A DNA stretch of 64,000 nucleotides from Calditrichaceae bacterium (GTDB taxonomy: Bacteria; Calditrichota; Calditrichia; Calditrichales; JBFXGD01): contig JBFXLE010000005.1 in the NCBI GenBank assembly GCA_050173015.1, forward strand, positions 96,001 to 160,000. The letters run 5' to 3'. A program made the translations under genes and the position numbers. The first letter of the stretch is position 1. Each line of letters opens with the position of its first letter. Positions 56,970-64,000 of this stretch are shown here, in pieces. The notes under the pieces were generated by a model. It saw only the letters and a program-made list of their open reading frames with translations, was not told where the DNA came from and did no database searches.

Positions 56970-57216
56970 GGAAAGTCCGGTATCAGGGGCGCCGGGCTTT
57001 CCGCCGCGTAATGCGTTAAAAAACAAACAAAACTCTTATACCTTATTTTTGTTTTCTTCAACCTTAGTAGTACAAAGACAACAAAAACACAAAACCTCAT
57101 TATTTTATTTGATTTACAAATCAGACTAACAATCTGCCATGCATTTGGTATTTAGTTTTTTAGAATAGCAACCATTAATTCCGGAACGGCAGGGGGATGT
57201 TTTTGCGGAAACATGG

Positions 57217-57309
57217 TAAGTTAGCCCTGTAACTTGAGAAGTTACGCCGGAAAGTTCTGAAGTTACGCCGGAAAGTTCTGAAGTTATTATCGAAACTTGG
57301 GAAGTTACA
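57217..57309. repeat. Five-unit tandem array with a 21-bp period
   Basis: AAGTTA at 57218, 57239, 57260, 57281 and 57302; units 57238-57258 and 57259-57279 are identical (GAAGTTACGCCGGAAAGTTCT). Confidence 0.85.
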
Positions 57310-57648
57310 GACAGTTGCTCCCATAACCTTTTTTTATAGGCTTCAGAAGATTTTAATTTGAAGCATGAGGATCATGGAAAATAACGACCTGGAGCCGGCT
57401 CAAAATACCGATGGCGAGAGATGAATATCCTCTTCATTCTCAGTTATGTATGATTATAATCCGGTTCTTGAATTTTTAAATATTTCTGTTTATAATAATA
57501 ACGTTTTTAGTTTTATCTTTTGCTTTTTCTTCAATCTTTGAAAACGATTACAATAGGGAGTTTGGCATATATTAATGACGACGTATGTTTTGGATTTCGA
57601 CTCATGCCGGTTTTAAGATATCAAACAAAGAATAATGGGGGAATTACA

Positions 57649-57792
57649 CTTGAACAGGATACAGATTTAAGGTGTTTTCAAGAGTTGCTGGGCCATAATA
57701 GTTCCAAAACTACTGAGATATATACGCACGTTTCAAAAAAGGCTATTGATAGAATCAGGAATCCGATTGATGATTTTTTTGAACAAGATTAA
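57649..57792 (+). pseudogene. C-terminal remnant of a tyrosine recombinase/integrase
   Basis: LEQDTDLRCFQELLGHNSSKTTEIYTHVS...IRNPID carries the LGH box and catalytic Tyr; no HxLRH box or N-terminal domains upstream. Confidence 0.88.
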
Positions 57793-57807
57793 TATAATTG
57801 TAAAAGA

Positions 57808-57883
57808 AATATATAAACAATAGTGCTTATACCGCCAATTTAGGCGGATAAGAACGATAGAATATATACGCACGTTAGCAGCA
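57808..57883 (+). other. attI-like primary recombination site
   Basis: GTTAGCA core at 57874 with no attC left arm, preceded by hairpin CTTAT-A-CCGCC/GGCGG-ATAAG and two AATATATA direct repeats; lies just downstream of the integrase stop. Confidence 0.6.
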
Positions 57884-57972
57884 ACCATTAAAGAAAATCG
57901 AGTAATGAAAGATTTTTAAAAATTAATTGTAACATATGACTATTGTAATTCGTCAAACAAAAAAATATAATT

Positions 57973-58719
57973 ATGAGACAAATATTTATTTATTTAATTT
58001 TGGCAGGCACAATTTCGTGTAATAATCCGAAACAAGATCAAAATTCTGAAAGTATTAATTCGCAATTGGAAATAAACGATACTATTTCAATTAGATTAAT
58101 TTTACCAAGTTCTTTAGAAAATAGAAGACAAGAATTCCTTGACTATGTTAATTCCGCAAGAAAGAATATCAGAGATTTTTCTGAAAAATATGAGTGGAAG
58201 GATATAACAAAAGATGAATTCATGGATAGTGTTATTATCTTTGACAATAAAAACTATTTTAATAAAACGTTATTAAAACTTGCAGGAGCTGACACATCAA
58301 TAAATTTGCCTGATACATATTGCGCTGCATTGGAAAAAAGAACCTTAGTTTCTGTTTCGCCTGAATTTTATTCAAAAGTATATCCCGAAGGAATAGAAGA
58401 AAATTCTTTTGAAAAATTGCTTACACATGAAATCGCACATCAATTGCATGTGAGAATATTAAAAGGGGACGAAGAAGCCATGGGACCTATTTGGTTTTAT
58501 GAAGGTTTCGCAATGTATGTGGCAAATCAATTTTCAGGATCAAATATTGTTCTTAGTAAAGAGGAAATGATTAAAATAATGGGAAACCCAGACAGAGGCA
58601 GTTATATTAAATATAATTATATTTTTAGGTATTTTGTAAGTAAGATTTCGTTAAAAGAATTAATTTTTAAAGCAAAGAATGAAAATTTCAATGAAGAATT
58701 AATCAAATCGCTTCAATGA
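57973..58719 (+). CDS. Cassette 1: lipoprotein with a zinc metallopeptidase (HExxH, gluzincin-like) motif
   Basis: Lipobox TISC; THEIAHQLH...PIWFYEGFAMY. Confidence 0.78.
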   Translation: MRQIFIYLILAGTISCNNPKQDQNSESINSQLEINDTISIRLILPSSLENRRQEFLDYVNSARKNIRDFSEKYEWKDITKDEFMDSVIIFDNKNYFNKTLLKLAGADTSINLPDTYCAALEKRTLVSVSPEFYSKVYPEGIEENSFEKLLTHEIAHQLHVRILKGDEEAMGPIWFYEGFAMYVANQFSGSNIVLSKEEMIKIMGNPDRGSYIKYNYIFRYFVSKISLKELIFKAKNENFNEELIKSLQ

Positions 58720-58767
58720 CAATAAACAAGTCAAGCGAAATTAATGACTGAAAACAAAATGGCATGC

Positions 58768-58898
58768 TGCTAACATCGTGTATAAAACATTGGGGTATAG
58801 GTGGTTATATGAAGTTCCTGCCCCGCATCAAACTTTGGTGTTGGGGGATAGTTCCGTAGCCCGCAATCCCCAACGTTTCATACACGTAACCGTTAGGC
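58768..58898 (+). repeat. attC-like site 1 (131 bp)
   Basis: TGCTAAC-AT-CGTGTATAAAAC-A-TTGGGG ... CCCCAA-C-GTTTCATACACG-TAACC-GTTAGGC. Confidence 0.85.
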
Positions 58899-58944
58899 AA
58901 AATTTAAAATTGACTACCAGATAATAAATTTGACCGTGAAATAG

Positions 58945-60210
58945 ATGAAAAATAAAAGTCAAAAGAATAAACTAAATATAGTTTATAATATAGACGCTAG
59001 AAGAATTCTGGATAAAATACCTGAAGAAGTAAAAGTTGCAACGACAATTACATCTCCACCTTATTTTGAAATGAAAGATTATGATTCTGACAATCAGATT
59101 GGTTACGGACAAACTTATGATGAATATTTAGAAGACCTTAAATCAATTTTTGCGGGTGTTTTTCAAGTTACAAAGGACGATGGAACTTTATGGATTGTTA
59201 TTGATACATTCAAAAGAAATAATCAAGTAGTTCCATTACCTTTTGATTTATCTAATAAATTAAAAGAAATTGGTTGGTTGCTCCAAGATATAATAATTTG
59301 GAAAAAAGATAAAACTGTGCCTTGGTCATCTAATGGTTTTATGCAACGTAAATTTGAGTACATTCTATTCTTTTCAAAATCTGAAAATTATAAAACCAAT
59401 AAAGATAATGTTAGAGTTTACGATACTACTCAGCTAAAAAAATGGTGGGTTAAATACCCTGAAAGATATAATCCCAGAGGAAAAGCACTTGAAGAAGTTT
59501 GGGAATTTCCAATACCAACTCAAGGCTCTTGGGGTGACCAATATATACGACATTTTTGTCCTCTACCGCAGAGTATGGTAGCTACCATGATTCAAATTAG
59601 TTCAGATGAAAATGATATTGTCCTGGATCCTTTTGCAGGAAGTGGTACTGTATTGACCCAATCTGCCTATATGAAAAGAAATTATCTAGGATTTGAACTT
59701 AATGAGAGCTACATAAGAATGTTTGAAAATTATCTTAAAAAAACATTCAAAAAGAATAGGAAAGAATACGAGGCATCTGGGCAAATTATTGAACAGGACT
59801 TATTTGAAAAAAGAATTCTTGATTTAAGATCTTTAAAATACGCCAGAGTATTGATTAATAACTTTGAAAAGGCAACAAATATCAGCGATTTTAAAATATT
59901 TGTAAATCCGAAAGGAAGTAGTACAGCTAAAAACAAATTAATAAGAGTTGAATATCAAATTATTGGAGAAATTGACAACCGTGTATTTAAAGATTTAATC
60001 AACCAATTAATCCTTAAACCACCTTTATCCAAATATGGAATTGAACCCTCTTTTATCTTCAAAGAATCGAAAAAGTATAATTTAAAAAAGCATTACGGAT
60101 ATTCGAAAACGAATACTTATTCATTTATTAAAAATCCAAACTTTGATTCTTCAATGATCAGAGTAATAAGTGATATATGTGTTGATCTTAACGAAAATGA
60201 TTACTTATAG
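58945..60210 (+). CDS. Cassette 2, gene 1: beta-class amino (N4-C/N6-A) DNA methyltransferase with a C-terminal extension
   Basis: Motif IV TSPPY precedes motif I DPFAGSGT; IIWKK, FEYILFFSK; about 140 extra C-terminal residues. Confidence 0.92.
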   Translation: MKNKSQKNKLNIVYNIDARRILDKIPEEVKVATTITSPPYFEMKDYDSDNQIGYGQTYDEYLEDLKSIFAGVFQVTKDDGTLWIVIDTFKRNNQVVPLPFDLSNKLKEIGWLLQDIIIWKKDKTVPWSSNGFMQRKFEYILFFSKSENYKTNKDNVRVYDTTQLKKWWVKYPERYNPRGKALEEVWEFPIPTQGSWGDQYIRHFCPLPQSMVATMIQISSDENDIVLDPFAGSGTVLTQSAYMKRNYLGFELNESYIRMFENYLKKTFKKNRKEYEASGQIIEQDLFEKRILDLRSLKYARVLINNFEKATNISDFKIFVNPKGSSTAKNKLIRVEYQIIGEIDNRVFKDLINQLILKPPLSKYGIEPSFIFKESKKYNLKKHYGYSKTNTYSFIKNPNFDSSMIRVISDICVDLNENDYL

Positions 60211-60218
60211 TTATTGGT

Positions 60219-62003
60219 ATGGCGAAAATAAAAAGCAAAAAAAGAACCACTAGAAAAAAGTTGTCTCCACAAGAGAAAGCTATTTTAAAGGAAAAACGAG
60301 ATCAGCGAAACGAAATATCAACGATTTTAAAAAATATTGGTTTTTATAGACTGCCATTTATTGATGGCAAGCATTTTGAATATGAACAAAAAAAGACTGA
60401 AATGGATGATGTTTTTATCAATCAAAACATCATTTTAATTACTGAATACACTGTAGGAGATCCAAAAGATCATTTGTTTTCCAAAAAAATATTTTACGAT
60501 AAGATTAACCAAGATAAACGAAAATTTATTGACTTCCTTCTTTCAGAAGATAAGCTAAAGAGTTTTCAAAATTATTATTCAAATAATATACAAGGTAATT
60601 ATTCGAAGAATGAATTGCATCTTCAAATTTTATATTGTTCTAAAAAGTCAATTTCTGACGATCATAAAAATTTAGTTGACCATGTGATTTTTTTTGATTA
60701 TCACATTGTTCAATACTTTAAAAGTCTAACAAAAGTTATTAAGCAATCGAGTAAATATGAATTTCTTGATTTTATAAAAATACCTTTTGAAGAGTTTGGA
60801 TCAAATATTAAAAACTCATCAGTTTCATCTTCTAATAAATTTTCGGGACATATTTTGCCAGAAGAAAAAAGTTCATTTGATGAGGGTTATAAAATTGTTT
60901 CATTTTATATCGATGCAGAATCTTTGTTAAAAAGATCTTATGTTTTGAGACAATCTGGTTGGCGCGATCTTGAAAATGTTGGTCATTATCAGAGAATGTT
61001 TGAAGCGAAAAAAATATCAAGTATGCGAAGATATTTAACCGAAAAAAATAGAGTTTTTATAAACAATATTATTTCAACAATCTCAATCGATAAAATCAAA
61101 CTGTATGATAGGAAAGGTAAATTGCTATCGATTAGTGAAAATGGTCAATTTATTGGTGATAATGCAACAGAAGTCACACCTGCATTAATTGAAATAAATG
61201 ATGAATGCAATATTATTGGTTTAATAGATGGTCAACATCGAACTTATGCTTATCATGAGGGTGATGACCAATTTGAAGAGACTATTTCAAAACTCCGGAA
61301 AATTCAAAACCTACTTGTAACCGGTATTTTATTTCCAAAAACTGAGAACAAGCAAACAAGATTAAAATTTGAAGCAAATCTGTTTTTAGAAATAAATTCA
61401 AATCAAACCAATGTTAAATCTCAACTAAAACAAGAAATTGAATTAATGATTAGTCCATTTTCTACAGTTGCAATTGGAAAGAGAATATTACTAGGTTTGA
61501 ATAAAAGTGGACCATTGGGAAATTTAATTGAGCAGTACTGGTATGAAAAAGGGAAAATTAAAACTGCTTCTATTGTTAGTTTTGGATTAAAACCTTTAAT
61601 AAAAATTGAAGATGTAAAGGCTAAGGACAGTATATATTCTATTTGGAAAAATCCTGACAAGCAAAAATTAAAAATAAAAGACAATAAAGAATTTGATTTG
61701 TTGGATGAATACGTGAATTTCTCGGTTGAAAAGATTAGAGATATATTCATTGCCCTAAAAATGACATTGGCATCAGATCAGTGGGAAACATATAGACCAA
61801 GTAATCCTAGAGGAACTTTAACTGTTACATTTATTAATGGCATTTTGAATGTTTTAAGATTACTAATTGAAAATAATAAGGTGTCGACAATTGATGATTA
61901 TAAAATAAAGCTGAATGGTATTGATAAATTTGATTTTAAGAAATTTAAATCAAGTCAATATAGAAAAATGGGTGAAGAGATTTACAATAAATATTTTCGT
62001 TAA
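60219..62003 (+). CDS. Cassette 2, gene 2: DGQHR (DndB-like) domain protein with a possible PD-(D/E)xK-like N-terminus
   Basis: YQR, LIDGQHRTYAY, LFLEINSNQ; N-terminal TEMDDVF...ITEYT. Confidence 0.85.
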   Translation: MAKIKSKKRTTRKKLSPQEKAILKEKRDQRNEISTILKNIGFYRLPFIDGKHFEYEQKKTEMDDVFINQNIILITEYTVGDPKDHLFSKKIFYDKINQDKRKFIDFLLSEDKLKSFQNYYSNNIQGNYSKNELHLQILYCSKKSISDDHKNLVDHVIFFDYHIVQYFKSLTKVIKQSSKYEFLDFIKIPFEEFGSNIKNSSVSSSNKFSGHILPEEKSSFDEGYKIVSFYIDAESLLKRSYVLRQSGWRDLENVGHYQRMFEAKKISSMRRYLTEKNRVFINNIISTISIDKIKLYDRKGKLLSISENGQFIGDNATEVTPALIEINDECNIIGLIDGQHRTYAYHEGDDQFEETISKLRKIQNLLVTGILFPKTENKQTRLKFEANLFLEINSNQTNVKSQLKQEIELMISPFSTVAIGKRILLGLNKSGPLGNLIEQYWYEKGKIKTASIVSFGLKPLIKIEDVKAKDSIYSIWKNPDKQKLKIKDNKEFDLLDEYVNFSVEKIRDIFIALKMTLASDQWETYRPSNPRGTLTVTFINGILNVLRLLIENNKVSTIDDYKIKLNGIDKFDFKKFKSSQYRKMGEEIYNKYFR

Positions 62004-62013
62004 AAAAAACTTT

Positions 62014-62143
62014 GCCTAACAATGTATAAAAATAATAGACGAGACAGTAGTAAATTCAAGGCTTGTCGCTCGCTTCAACTTCATCTCGGTTTGACAGGAA
62101 AGTAGTACGCAGTCGGCCACTATTCTTATACTAACCATTAGCA
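62014..62143 (+). repeat. attC-like site 2 (130 bp), with core GTT changed to ATT
   Basis: GCCTAAC-AAT-GTATAAAAATA ... TATTCTTATAC-TAACC-ATTAGCA. Confidence 0.82.
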
Positions 62144-62149
62144 GCAAAG

Positions 62150-62178
62150 TTGACAAATCCATCTACTAAAACTATAAT
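62150..62178 (+). promoter_or_regulatory. Perfect-consensus sigma70 promoter inside cassette 3
   Basis: TTGACA (62150-62155)-17 nt-TATAAT (62173-62178). Confidence 0.75.
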
Positions 62179-62219
62179 CTAACTTGATTAATGAATAAAT
62201 ATGAAAAATATAGAAATCA

Positions 62220-63665
62220 ATGAATAAAAGAAAAACACGATATTCTTACATCTATTTGTTATTTGCATTTATTTCACTTTTCTTTTTTAATGGTAAATGG
62301 ATTTTACCAATTGCCGCATTTTTAGCACCAATATTTGTAATTCGTTTTTTACGGTTTCAAAAACCATTTAAAGGATTTCTGATAATTGTTCTTGTTGGTT
62401 GGGTGTCAAACATATTCGTCTGGAAGGGAATGATGCCCATGTCAGGATTTTTCTACTACCTGGTTTCTTTTATGATGAGCTTATTTACTTCGCTGACATT
62501 TTTGTTAGATCGAATTTACACTCAAAAATTTAAGGGAATCATTTCGACACTCATATTTCCTTCTGTTTATGTGACAATGGATTACATTACCATATTAACT
62601 AATCCTTCAGGTTCATACGGAACTTTGGTTCACACTCAGTCATCTTTACCCTTATTACAGCTTGTCTCCATAACTGGCATTTTTGGGGTAATATTTTTAA
62701 TTACGTGGACTGCATCAATTATAAATTGGCTTTGGGACAATCATTTTGAGAAAAATAAAGTTTATTCATCGTTTTGGGGATTTGGTATTCCTTTTCTCGC
62801 GGTAATTTTATGGGGGCAAATAAGATTGTCTTCAACAATTGATTCACAAACGGTAAGAATAGCTTCAATTAATAGCACTAAAACAGAGTATCATCATCGT
62901 ATGACAACGAATTTTGACTCTTTAGTTGAAAAGGCAAACCAGGGATTTTTAGAAAATTGTGAAATAGCGGCTTCATCAGGTGCCAAAATAATATTTGGAC
63001 GAGAAACAATCATCAGTTTGTCCGTTGATACTGAAACTAACTTCATCGAAAAAGCTAAAACAATTGCAATACGTGACAGTATTTACATTGGAATTCCCAT
63101 CAATTTAATACCTAAGGAAAACTCCAATGAAAATCCTGAAAACAAAATAACCTGGATTTCTCCAACAGGAAAAATACTATTTACATATCATAAGGCAAAG
63201 CCAACTTATCCGGGTGAATGTGATGATGGAAATGGAATTATAAAATATTTTGATTCGCCTTACGGAAGAATTGGTTCAGCCATTTGTTTCGATATGGATT
63301 TTCCCTCCTTGATTAGTCAAACCGGTAAAATGGATATTGACATTATGTTAGTGCCGGGTAGCGACTGGGAAGATATTTCGCCTTATCATACCTACGTGGC
63401 ATCCATAAGAGGCATTGAAAATGGTTTTAACATGGTTAGGTCAACATTCAAAGGATTTTCTGCTTCCTTTAATTATAAGGGGCAACTTTTATCGTCCAAT
63501 GACTTTTTTAAGACCAACGAAGTAATTTTATATTCTGATGTGCCTATTAAAGGACAAAAAACGATATATTCATTTTTAGGAAATTATTTTGCGTGGCTCT
63601 GTATTATATTCTTTCTCTCAATGAGTTTTGTTTTCTTTAAAAATAAATGGATTAATAAGAAGTAG
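62220..63665 (+). CDS. Cassette 3: membrane-bound nitrilase/carbon-nitrogen hydrolase (apolipoprotein N-acyltransferase-like)
   Basis: N-terminal TM bundle with QLVSITGIFGV; catalytic E (IFGRE), K (YHK) and C (AICFD); RGIENG. Confidence 0.85.
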   Translation: MNKRKTRYSYIYLLFAFISLFFFNGKWILPIAAFLAPIFVIRFLRFQKPFKGFLIIVLVGWVSNIFVWKGMMPMSGFFYYLVSFMMSLFTSLTFLLDRIYTQKFKGIISTLIFPSVYVTMDYITILTNPSGSYGTLVHTQSSLPLLQLVSITGIFGVIFLITWTASIINWLWDNHFEKNKVYSSFWGFGIPFLAVILWGQIRLSSTIDSQTVRIASINSTKTEYHHRMTTNFDSLVEKANQGFLENCEIAASSGAKIIFGRETIISLSVDTETNFIEKAKTIAIRDSIYIGIPINLIPKENSNENPENKITWISPTGKILFTYHKAKPTYPGECDDGNGIIKYFDSPYGRIGSAICFDMDFPSLISQTGKMDIDIMLVPGSDWEDISPYHTYVASIRGIENGFNMVRSTFKGFSASFNYKGQLLSSNDFFKTNEVILYSDVPIKGQKTIYSFLGNYFAWLCIIFFLSMSFVFFKNKWINKK

Positions 63666-63680
63666 GAATAAAAACCCAGC

Positions 63681-63811
63681 TGCTAACAATGTATAAAAAA
63701 ATAGGCGGTTTAGTAATAAATTCAAGGGCTGTAGCCCGATTCAACTTTCGTTGTATCTTGAAAGTGAAGTGCATTAAAATCCCGCACTACGCATAGCCGA
63801 AACCGTTAACC
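63681..63811 (+). repeat. attC-like site 3 (131 bp)
   Basis: TGCTAAC-AAT-GTATAAAAAAATAGGCGG ... CCGCACTACGCATAGCCGAAACC-GTTAACC; centre is 28/34 identical to site 2. Confidence 0.8.
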
Positions 63812-63833
63812 TTTAATAAATACCCGAAATCAA

Positions 63834-64000
63834 TTGAAAAAAATATTTACATCAATAGTCATACAGGACAAAGAAGAAAAGAAAGAGTATCGATGGCAGG
63901 TTTCGATAACGGTACTCATTCTGTTTATTTTCGGTTCAGTCATAAATATACCATTTAGCAGAGAAGTCAAAAAATTAAACATAGAAGCCGGCAAGACAGG
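63834..64000 (+). CDS. Cassette 4: 5' part of a membrane protein, truncated by the window end
   Basis: Open frame from TTG 63834: MKKIFTSIVIQDKEEKKEYRWQVSITVLILFIFGSVINIPFSREVKKLNIEAGKT... Confidence 0.55.
   Translation, partial: MKKIFTSIVIQDKEEKKEYRWQVSITVLILFIFGSVINIPFSREVKKLNIEAGKT

Follow-up and report, generated by a model that had tools for sequence, protein, structure and literature searches.

A probable decayed integron-like platform and cassette array, linked to a family of short tyrosine recombinases, in a Calditrichaceae genome

We analysed a stretch of 64,000 nucleotides (hereafter the window) from the genome of a Calditrichaceae bacterium (GCA_050173015.1; 4.34 Mb in 54 contigs), corresponding to positions 96001-160000 of contig JBFXLE010000005.1, which we call C5. 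Positions are those of the window unless a contig or locus is named. Judging from the sequence, its last part is very probably the decayed platform and the cassette array of an integron-like capture system, whose recombinase has ~280 residues and lacks the IntI-specific domain. The system is a widespread variant of the integron, and apparently an undescribed one. A preliminary description of the same DNA had proposed an integron-type cassette array, with the recombinase gene upstream and co-oriented, a first insertion site past the stop codon of this gene and a gene reduced to a stump. Our results support all these points (Table 1).

We first describe the platform, which starts with the 3' end of a tyrosine recombinase gene. 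This stump is 93% identical over 46 residues to the full-length relative P0003 (tblastn), and a homologue search revealed identities of 89-93% with the C-terminal ends of proteins that have 278-282 residues and belong to several phyla. Alignment with full-length relatives shows that the LLGH and IYTH motifs are retained and that the Arg, Lys and HxxR catalytic motifs are gone. The attI-like region past the stop codon ends in a core finishing in GTT (57862-57876), and this core is identical at 15/15 nt to the codons of IYTHV inside the stump (57718-57732). When the same two segments are compared in 20 other loci, they have 5-10 of 15 letters in common, a range given without a control. The family is represented in this genome by stumps only (tblastn): one on C5, three on C9 and one on C43. 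Sequence resembling the attI region also lies 3' of the C9 stumps (two cases found by motif search, the third by reading), and the C43 stump likewise precedes attI-like sequence (by reading). The latter stump, on the minus strand at C43:2300-2720, is decayed, spans residues 232-280 with 65% identity, and its attI-like sequence ends in ...GTAACC GTTGTAC; a search of the genome with the covariance model R1 described below (150 of 924 candidates scored) gave no site on this contig. We found no intact member of the family in the genome using tblastn with a full-length relative, and no match to the integron integrase model TIGR02249 above its cut-off. Hence, the six-cassette array is probably frozen in this genome. 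Two repeats lie just upstream of the stump: a 21-nt unit in four tandem copies (57206-57308) and a dispersed repeat of ~170 nt (57463-57633), which has nine other places in the genome and ends 15 nt before the stump. The latter may mark how the recombinase gene was truncated.

The stump stops short of the IntI-specific region, and the absence of this region was judged on full-length relatives. These were found, as the preliminary description had suggested doing, and when aligned with four IntIs of the same class (28 in the underlying alignment) they lack both IntI-specific insertion blocks. Three of them, P0003, P0016 and P0033, score 206.8, 223.3 and 203.9 bits against TIGR02249, each in two stretches, for a cut-off of 265. 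The short recombinases also miss the cut-offs of XerC and XerD (335 and 330 bits), with ~205 bits each, and pass that of the archaeal XerA model NF040815 (227-245 bits for a cut-off of 220), whose product name is 'site-specific tyrosine recombinase/integron integrase'. The closest solved structures are those of XerA (4a8e and 5hxy), followed by VchIntIA (2a3v). The identity between the family and this genome's own Xer genes is ~32%. Two features common to the family and IntI, a QNQ..AI.F.Y block and a (S/N)P(L/I)D tail at the C-terminus, are missing in these Xer proteins. The initial label of a 'XerD-type' enzyme was roughly right, but the family lies at about the same distance from Xer as from IntI.

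We sampled 301 genomes from the family of the Flaviramulus sp. whose genome contains locus L078, which we take to be the Flavobacteriaceae. Matches to the recombinase were present in 103 of them when E <= 1e-70 was required and in 52 when E <= 1e-120 was required; the places listed under the stricter threshold have 51-100% identity over nearly the full length. A scan of metagenomes yielded relatives with identities no higher than 63%, and the near-identical forms of 280 aa were not among them. Longer forms, of ~375-380 aa and ~480-570 aa, occur among loci L046-L125. They have one to three N-terminal modules with a W..W.IP-like motif, in which Pfam names no domain, and none of the four long-form recombinases searched (4/4) had a HARP match at E <= 0.01.

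The cassettes end in sites that share a fold. A search profile made from the three sites of the window found site 4 just beyond it, a degenerate site 5, site 6 after katG and seven sites on C9. Measured between the outer ends of the R'' and R' 7-mers, these 13 sites are 122-135 nt long, and their consensus fold on the bottom strand consists of a 5-bp R box (AAC/GTT), a 6/3 internal loop and an 18-bp stem. Compensatory changes affect 15/23 pairs (13/18 when the stem is taken alone). The fraction of paired cells is 89.4%. Sliding the partner by 1-3 columns lowers it to 34-46%, and 0/500 shuffles reach the observed values. Two stem positions carry G·T pairs in 12/13 sites. Such pairs are A·C mismatches on the top strand, and the two strands are thus not equivalent. 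There are no conserved single-base bulges in the 18-bp stem; the asymmetry of the site lies in the internal loop and in the two G·T pairs, and the unpaired bases of the loop might take over the role of extrahelical bases. The fold recurs in other genomes, where, in an alignment fitted to the model, 92.6% of the cells are paired in 92 sites from 35 loci. The stem of these foreign sites is 95% paired, with 17/18 pairs covarying, one G·U pair is present in 92/92 sites and the second in 77/92, all in this same fitted alignment. Rfam gave nothing relevant in the platform region or in the downstream locus.

Simpler searches for the sites were abandoned. A naive scan for hairpins with AAC...GTT folded arms was dropped, with ~20 hits per strand in 20 kb, and a stricter scan for ungapped stems lost about half of the true sites. 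The latter gave a cluster at 37.4-39.0 kb of the window that was confirmed neither by the covariance model nor by Tandem Repeats Finder.

The ends of the cassettes carry the footprint of their insertion. The cores are GTTAGCAGCA at 57874, GTTAGGCAAA at 58892 and ATTAGCAGC at 62137 on the starting side, and TGCTGCTAAC ending at 58774, TTTGCCTAAC ending at 62020 and GCTGCTAAC ending at 63687 on the 3' side, as initially reported; the R' that follows site 3 starts at 63805. Cassette 1 ends in the reverse complement of the attI core GTTAGCAGCA. We compared positions 5-12, counted from the G of GTT, in the 13 cassettes of this genome (six on C5, seven on C9). On average, the start of a cassette agrees with its own reverse-complemented end at 5.46/8 positions, and 0/20,000 permutations reach the observed sum. 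The mean is 2.92/8 for the partner arm of the same hairpin and 2.35/8 for all 156 non-own pairings. The claim that the start of a cassette pairs with its own end rather than with the other arm of its hairpin thus holds, and it does so elsewhere: 89 cassettes from arrays in other genomes give means of 6.03 for the own end and 2.55 for the partner (0/5,000 permutations). The preliminary description regarded these self-complementary ends as non-canonical. In fact, as it noted itself, they are the footprint of circular cassettes, and opening at the R' core produces them in any such cassette. It also predicted that cassette 4 is followed by another site, which is there (132 nt), but the end of this cassette reads ATGGCTAAC, not the expected AAGGTTAAC (7/9 letters).

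An equivalent footprint is found at attI. We searched the 250 nt after the stop codon of the recombinase gene for the reverse complement of the R'' 10-mer of the first site. It matches at >=9/10 positions in 22/33 loci, 15 of them exactly, and these matches are led by GTT and lie 30-235 nt past the stop codon. The control reached 9 or more in only 4/33 loci, even when any of ~20 upstream windows in each locus was counted.

We then turned to the linkage between recombinase and sites in other genomes. The covariance model R1 was built from the 13 sites of this genome, and matches were counted at E <= 0.01 in 80 loci around homologues of the recombinase, taken from a collection of species-representative genomes. 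This revealed 126 sites, all co-oriented with the recombinase gene and 125 of them downstream of it, even if more sequence was searched upstream (601 kb) than downstream (316 kb). Many contigs stop less than ~1 kb past the recombinase gene. There was a match in 35/47 loci having at least 1 kb downstream and in 29/35 of those having at least 3 kb. Around 20 of the 126 sites are ~190 nt long rather than ~130 nt. A further 80 loci from metagenomes gave 42 matches, all downstream and co-oriented. When the two datasets are combined, 168 sites were found around the 160 recombinase genes, of which 168 are co-oriented and 167 downstream.

Could the array be an ordinary one, of the type known as cluster of attC sites lacking integron integrases (CALIN), made by a classical IntI that was later lost, with the stump being an unrelated Xer-like gene that merely adjoins it? 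Classical IntIs are common in the clade, since 41/86 genomes of the same class have one above the curated cut-off. The sites also look the part: they have AAC/GTT cores and, in all 13 of this genome, a length within the range of classical attC, which the available sections of the literature describe as imperfect palindromes of 57-141 bp with two extrahelical bases read by IntI (PMC3053210). The ~20 sites of ~190 nt in other genomes exceed this range. Furthermore, one R1-type site (56 bits; L042:4622-4743) lies inside the cassette array of a classical, divergent IntI. This means that classical IntI might handle such sites, and hints at cassette exchange between both systems. Yet, this genome has no IntI. 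The 30 classical IntI loci that we analysed in the same class contain one R1 match in 294 kb, whereas the 1.0 Mb searched near the short recombinase contains 126, and a profile based on sequence only (nhmmer) found no sites in 14/15 classical IntI loci of relatives. The matches follow the orientation of the short recombinase gene without exception, all but one lie downstream of it, and the footprint of the first cassette starts right past its stop codon in 22/33 loci. Finally, the 52/301 genomes with a match at E <= 1e-120 belong to a phylum for which IntegronFinder 2.0 reports almost no integrons, with one complete integron in Bacteroidetes proper (PMC9024848). We therefore regard an origin by a lost classical IntI as improbable.

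It is slightly less probable still that the repeats are double-stranded inverted-repeat sites, as in the Xer/dif-type modules (pdif and integrative mobile elements exploiting Xer, IMEX), and not folded single strands. This hypothesis accounts for the best curated match of the recombinase, archaeal XerA (240 bits for a cut-off of 220), for its best solved relatives, which are XerA structures too, and for its lack of the IntI domain that reads extrahelical bases. It does not fit the sites. Their arms covary, instead of keeping one sequence, with changes on both sides at 13/18 stem pairs here and 17/18 elsewhere. The conserved G·T pairs, being A·C on the other strand, mark one of the strands. The sites are ~130 nt long, whereas pdif sites have ~28 bp, and their arrays run strictly in one direction, starting from an attI of their own.

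The content of the locus varies among close relatives, with breakpoints at core motifs. Contigs of two public runs from separate studies, X2 and X6, match the window up to 57732, continue with 1497 other letters and then match 62017-64000, with 23 differences in these 1984 letters. The segment 57733-62016 of the window is thus replaced. The left break is exactly past the GTT of the copy of the attI core in the IYTHV codons, and the right break is at the TAAC of the R'' of site 2. The junction may be explained by the enzyme cutting at this copy, which would be a route for cassette traffic to inactivate the enzyme's own gene. In a third run, X9, the cargo of cassette 2 (58880-61997, 97.6% identity) comes after a different hairpin, and another gene takes the place of site 2 behind it. 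None of the cassette DNA is present in the only other genome of the genus, where both flanks stop at contig ends, and this genome gave no R1 matches (150 of 798 candidates scored). The G+C content is 0.26-0.35 across the cassettes and 0.42-0.47 outside. The island is a horizontally acquired array that is probably frozen.

These data leave hardly any room for the hypothesis that nothing here is mobile and that the hairpins are terminator-like or repetitive extragenic palindromic (REP)-like repeats between ordinary chromosomal genes: every site does start 8-50 nt past a stop codon, and a REP-associated tyrosine transposase (RAYT) gene with many REP-like repeats lies just past the array, but the complementarity joins the two ends of a cassette and not the arms of one hairpin, the G+C content drops across the array, the cassette DNA is missing in the other genome of the genus, the content differs in X2 and X6 and the cargo of cassette 2 is elsewhere in X9, and the search of this genome with R1 at E <= 0.01 (150 of 924 candidates scored) had no match among the REP-like repeats close to the RAYT gene.

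We thus return to the integron-like capture system. In intact relatives, its layout consists of the recombinase gene, an attI ending in GTT 30-235 nt later, and co-directional cassettes each ending in a site of ~130 nt. This architecture, the covarying fold, the footprints at attI and at every site, and the strict association with the recombinase family are shown by the sequences. By analogy with integrons, the bottom strand of the site would fold into a hairpin, as a single strand in the cell, and the recombinase would recognise its shape. Strand exchange would then occur at or beside the GTT of the R' core. Circular cassettes would be inserted at attI and excised between two sites. The same analogy suggests that the short recombinase is the catalyst, that the bottom strand is the one used, and that cleavage falls at this point. 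On balance, we lean towards the view that this is a second integron-type lineage, whose IntI-domain-less enzyme reads hairpins marked by G·T pairs and possibly cuts its own IYTHV copy, and that the lineage is frequent in Bacteroidota and extends to other phyla.

Several observations weigh against this reading. No R1 match was found in 12/47 loci with at least 1 kb of sequence downstream of the gene, one match lies upstream of its recombinase gene (L063), and the site in the classical array of L042 is associated with another integrase. The folding of single sequences is weak, with z between +1.9 and -2.4 over eight strands, three of which are below -2. As a result, the case for a structure rests on covariation. 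Sites 4 and 5 were put into the model partly by eye, and their scores hold by construction. The complementarity of the ends is poor for cassette 4 (4/8) and for the ORF-less cassette 5 (2/8), i.e. for 2/6 cassettes on this contig. The precise cleavage point hangs on one informative case, the ATT at 62137. Lastly, the contigs of X2 and X6 retain the hairpin body of site 2 next to cassette 3, but have a different cargo before it. This is not predicted by a crossover restricted to the junction between the G and the TT, unless the other cassette has a near-identical hairpin.

The cassettes of the window and their open reading frames (ORFs) are given in Table 1. All the cassette ORFs have the same direction. 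Beyond the window, and up to C5:163458, come site 4, cassette 5 with its degenerate site, and the katG cassette with site 6. The latter cassette (L003:1469-3858, corresponding to C5:161071-163458) encodes a full-length catalase-peroxidase of 725 aa (1263 bits; 2.3 kb), and its ends, GTTAGCAG and CTGCTAAC, are mutually complementary. Directly past the array there is an IS200/RAYT-type transposase gene (L003:5406-5870) amid dozens of REP-like CCCGAAGGGGTG hairpin repeats, in a block that spans L003:4200-6700 (C5:163800-166300). Beyond this block, and before a gene for DNA-alkylation repair, L003:6773-6838 resembles the L'-spacer end of a site, a weak half-site with a non-significant score (nhmmer E = 0.11). 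The platform and the array are bracketed by direct repeats of 124 nt that are 85% identical (57028-57151 and L003:4023-4146, or C5:163623-163746). We rejected them as an att duplication, because weaker copies on C4, C10 and C13 indicate a dispersed repeat.

Table 1. Features of the platform and of the cassette array in the window.
Feature	Position	Strand	Details
3' stump of tyrosine recombinase gene	57649..57792	+	residues 234-279 of ~280 plus stop codon; tblastn
15-nt attI-core copy inside stump	57718..57732	+	codons of IYTHV; ends in GTT
attI-like region	57793..57876	+	stop codon to first junction, ...ATATATACGCAC followed by GTT, junction after the G
Cassette 1	57875..58892	+	1018 nt; ORF 57973-58719, 248 aa, HExxH motif, no family match
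Site 1, attC-like	58768..58898	+	131 nt
Cassette 2	58893..62137	+	3245 nt; N6/N4 DNA methyltransferase 58945-60210; DGQHR-domain protein 60219-62003
Site 2	62014..62143	+	130 nt; R' reads ATT
Cassette 3	62138..63805	+	1668 nt; ORF 62220-63665, 481 aa, apolipoprotein N-acyltransferase-like, below curated cut-off
Site 3	63681..63811	+	131 nt
Cassette 4, start	63806..64000	+	CPBP/Rce1-like membrane protease, 271 aa

Integrons are defined and sought using the IntI-specific domain and an attC model trained on classical sites. According to the available text of PMC9668308, what defines IntI itself is an extra domain located around patch III, which an integrase has to match in IntegronFinder. The recombinase scores, the linkage of R1 matches and the attI junctions all agree with the initial suggestion that the lineage is distinct from classical integrons and is probably missed by searches based on the integrase. 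We found no description of the system in the literature searched, which was mostly outside subscription journals; the supplementary tables of IntegronFinder 2.0 might list such CALINs. If our interpretation is correct, a large part of integrons and of their cargo, which here includes defence and stress genes, escapes the surveys. The claimed necessity of the IntI domain for the recombination of folded sites would also need qualifying, and the system would provide a simpler pair of enzyme and site for mechanistic and engineering work.

How does this system compare with those already known? It was first thought to be unusual in its co-oriented recombinase gene. This is not a novelty: judging from the portions of these papers that are available, co-orientation of the integrase gene was described for Treponema (PMC3607928), and attI lies immediately downstream of intI in the integrons of Archaea (PMC9668308). 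According to the same papers, the integrases of Treponema and of the archaeal integrons carry the IntI-specific domain, whereas the short family does not. The unusual features are a recombinase without this domain and a contiguous stem with G·T pairs, not conserved single-base bulges. Like classical integrons (class 1 and the chromosomal ones of Vibrio), the system has a tyrosine recombinase with attI in cis, directional and mostly promoterless cassettes, ...AAC and GTT... cores, the footprint of a crossover at the R' core and a covariation that indicates a folded strand. Unlike them, its enzyme is below the cut-off for integron integrases, its gene is co-oriented with the cassettes and attI is past the stop codon of this gene; its sites differ from classical attC by the 18-bp stem being contiguous, by the two conserved G·T pairs and by the 6/3 loop. 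The locus resembles integrase-less cassette arrays in having no working integrase nearby, but here a stump and attI can still be recognised. The enzyme is similar to XerA and XerC/D in size, in domain layout and in lacking the IntI insertion, and XerA provides its best curated and solved matches. The difference from Xer lies in what surrounds it: instead of one short dif site, there is a dedicated attI, with folded sites of ~130 nt in long directional arrays.

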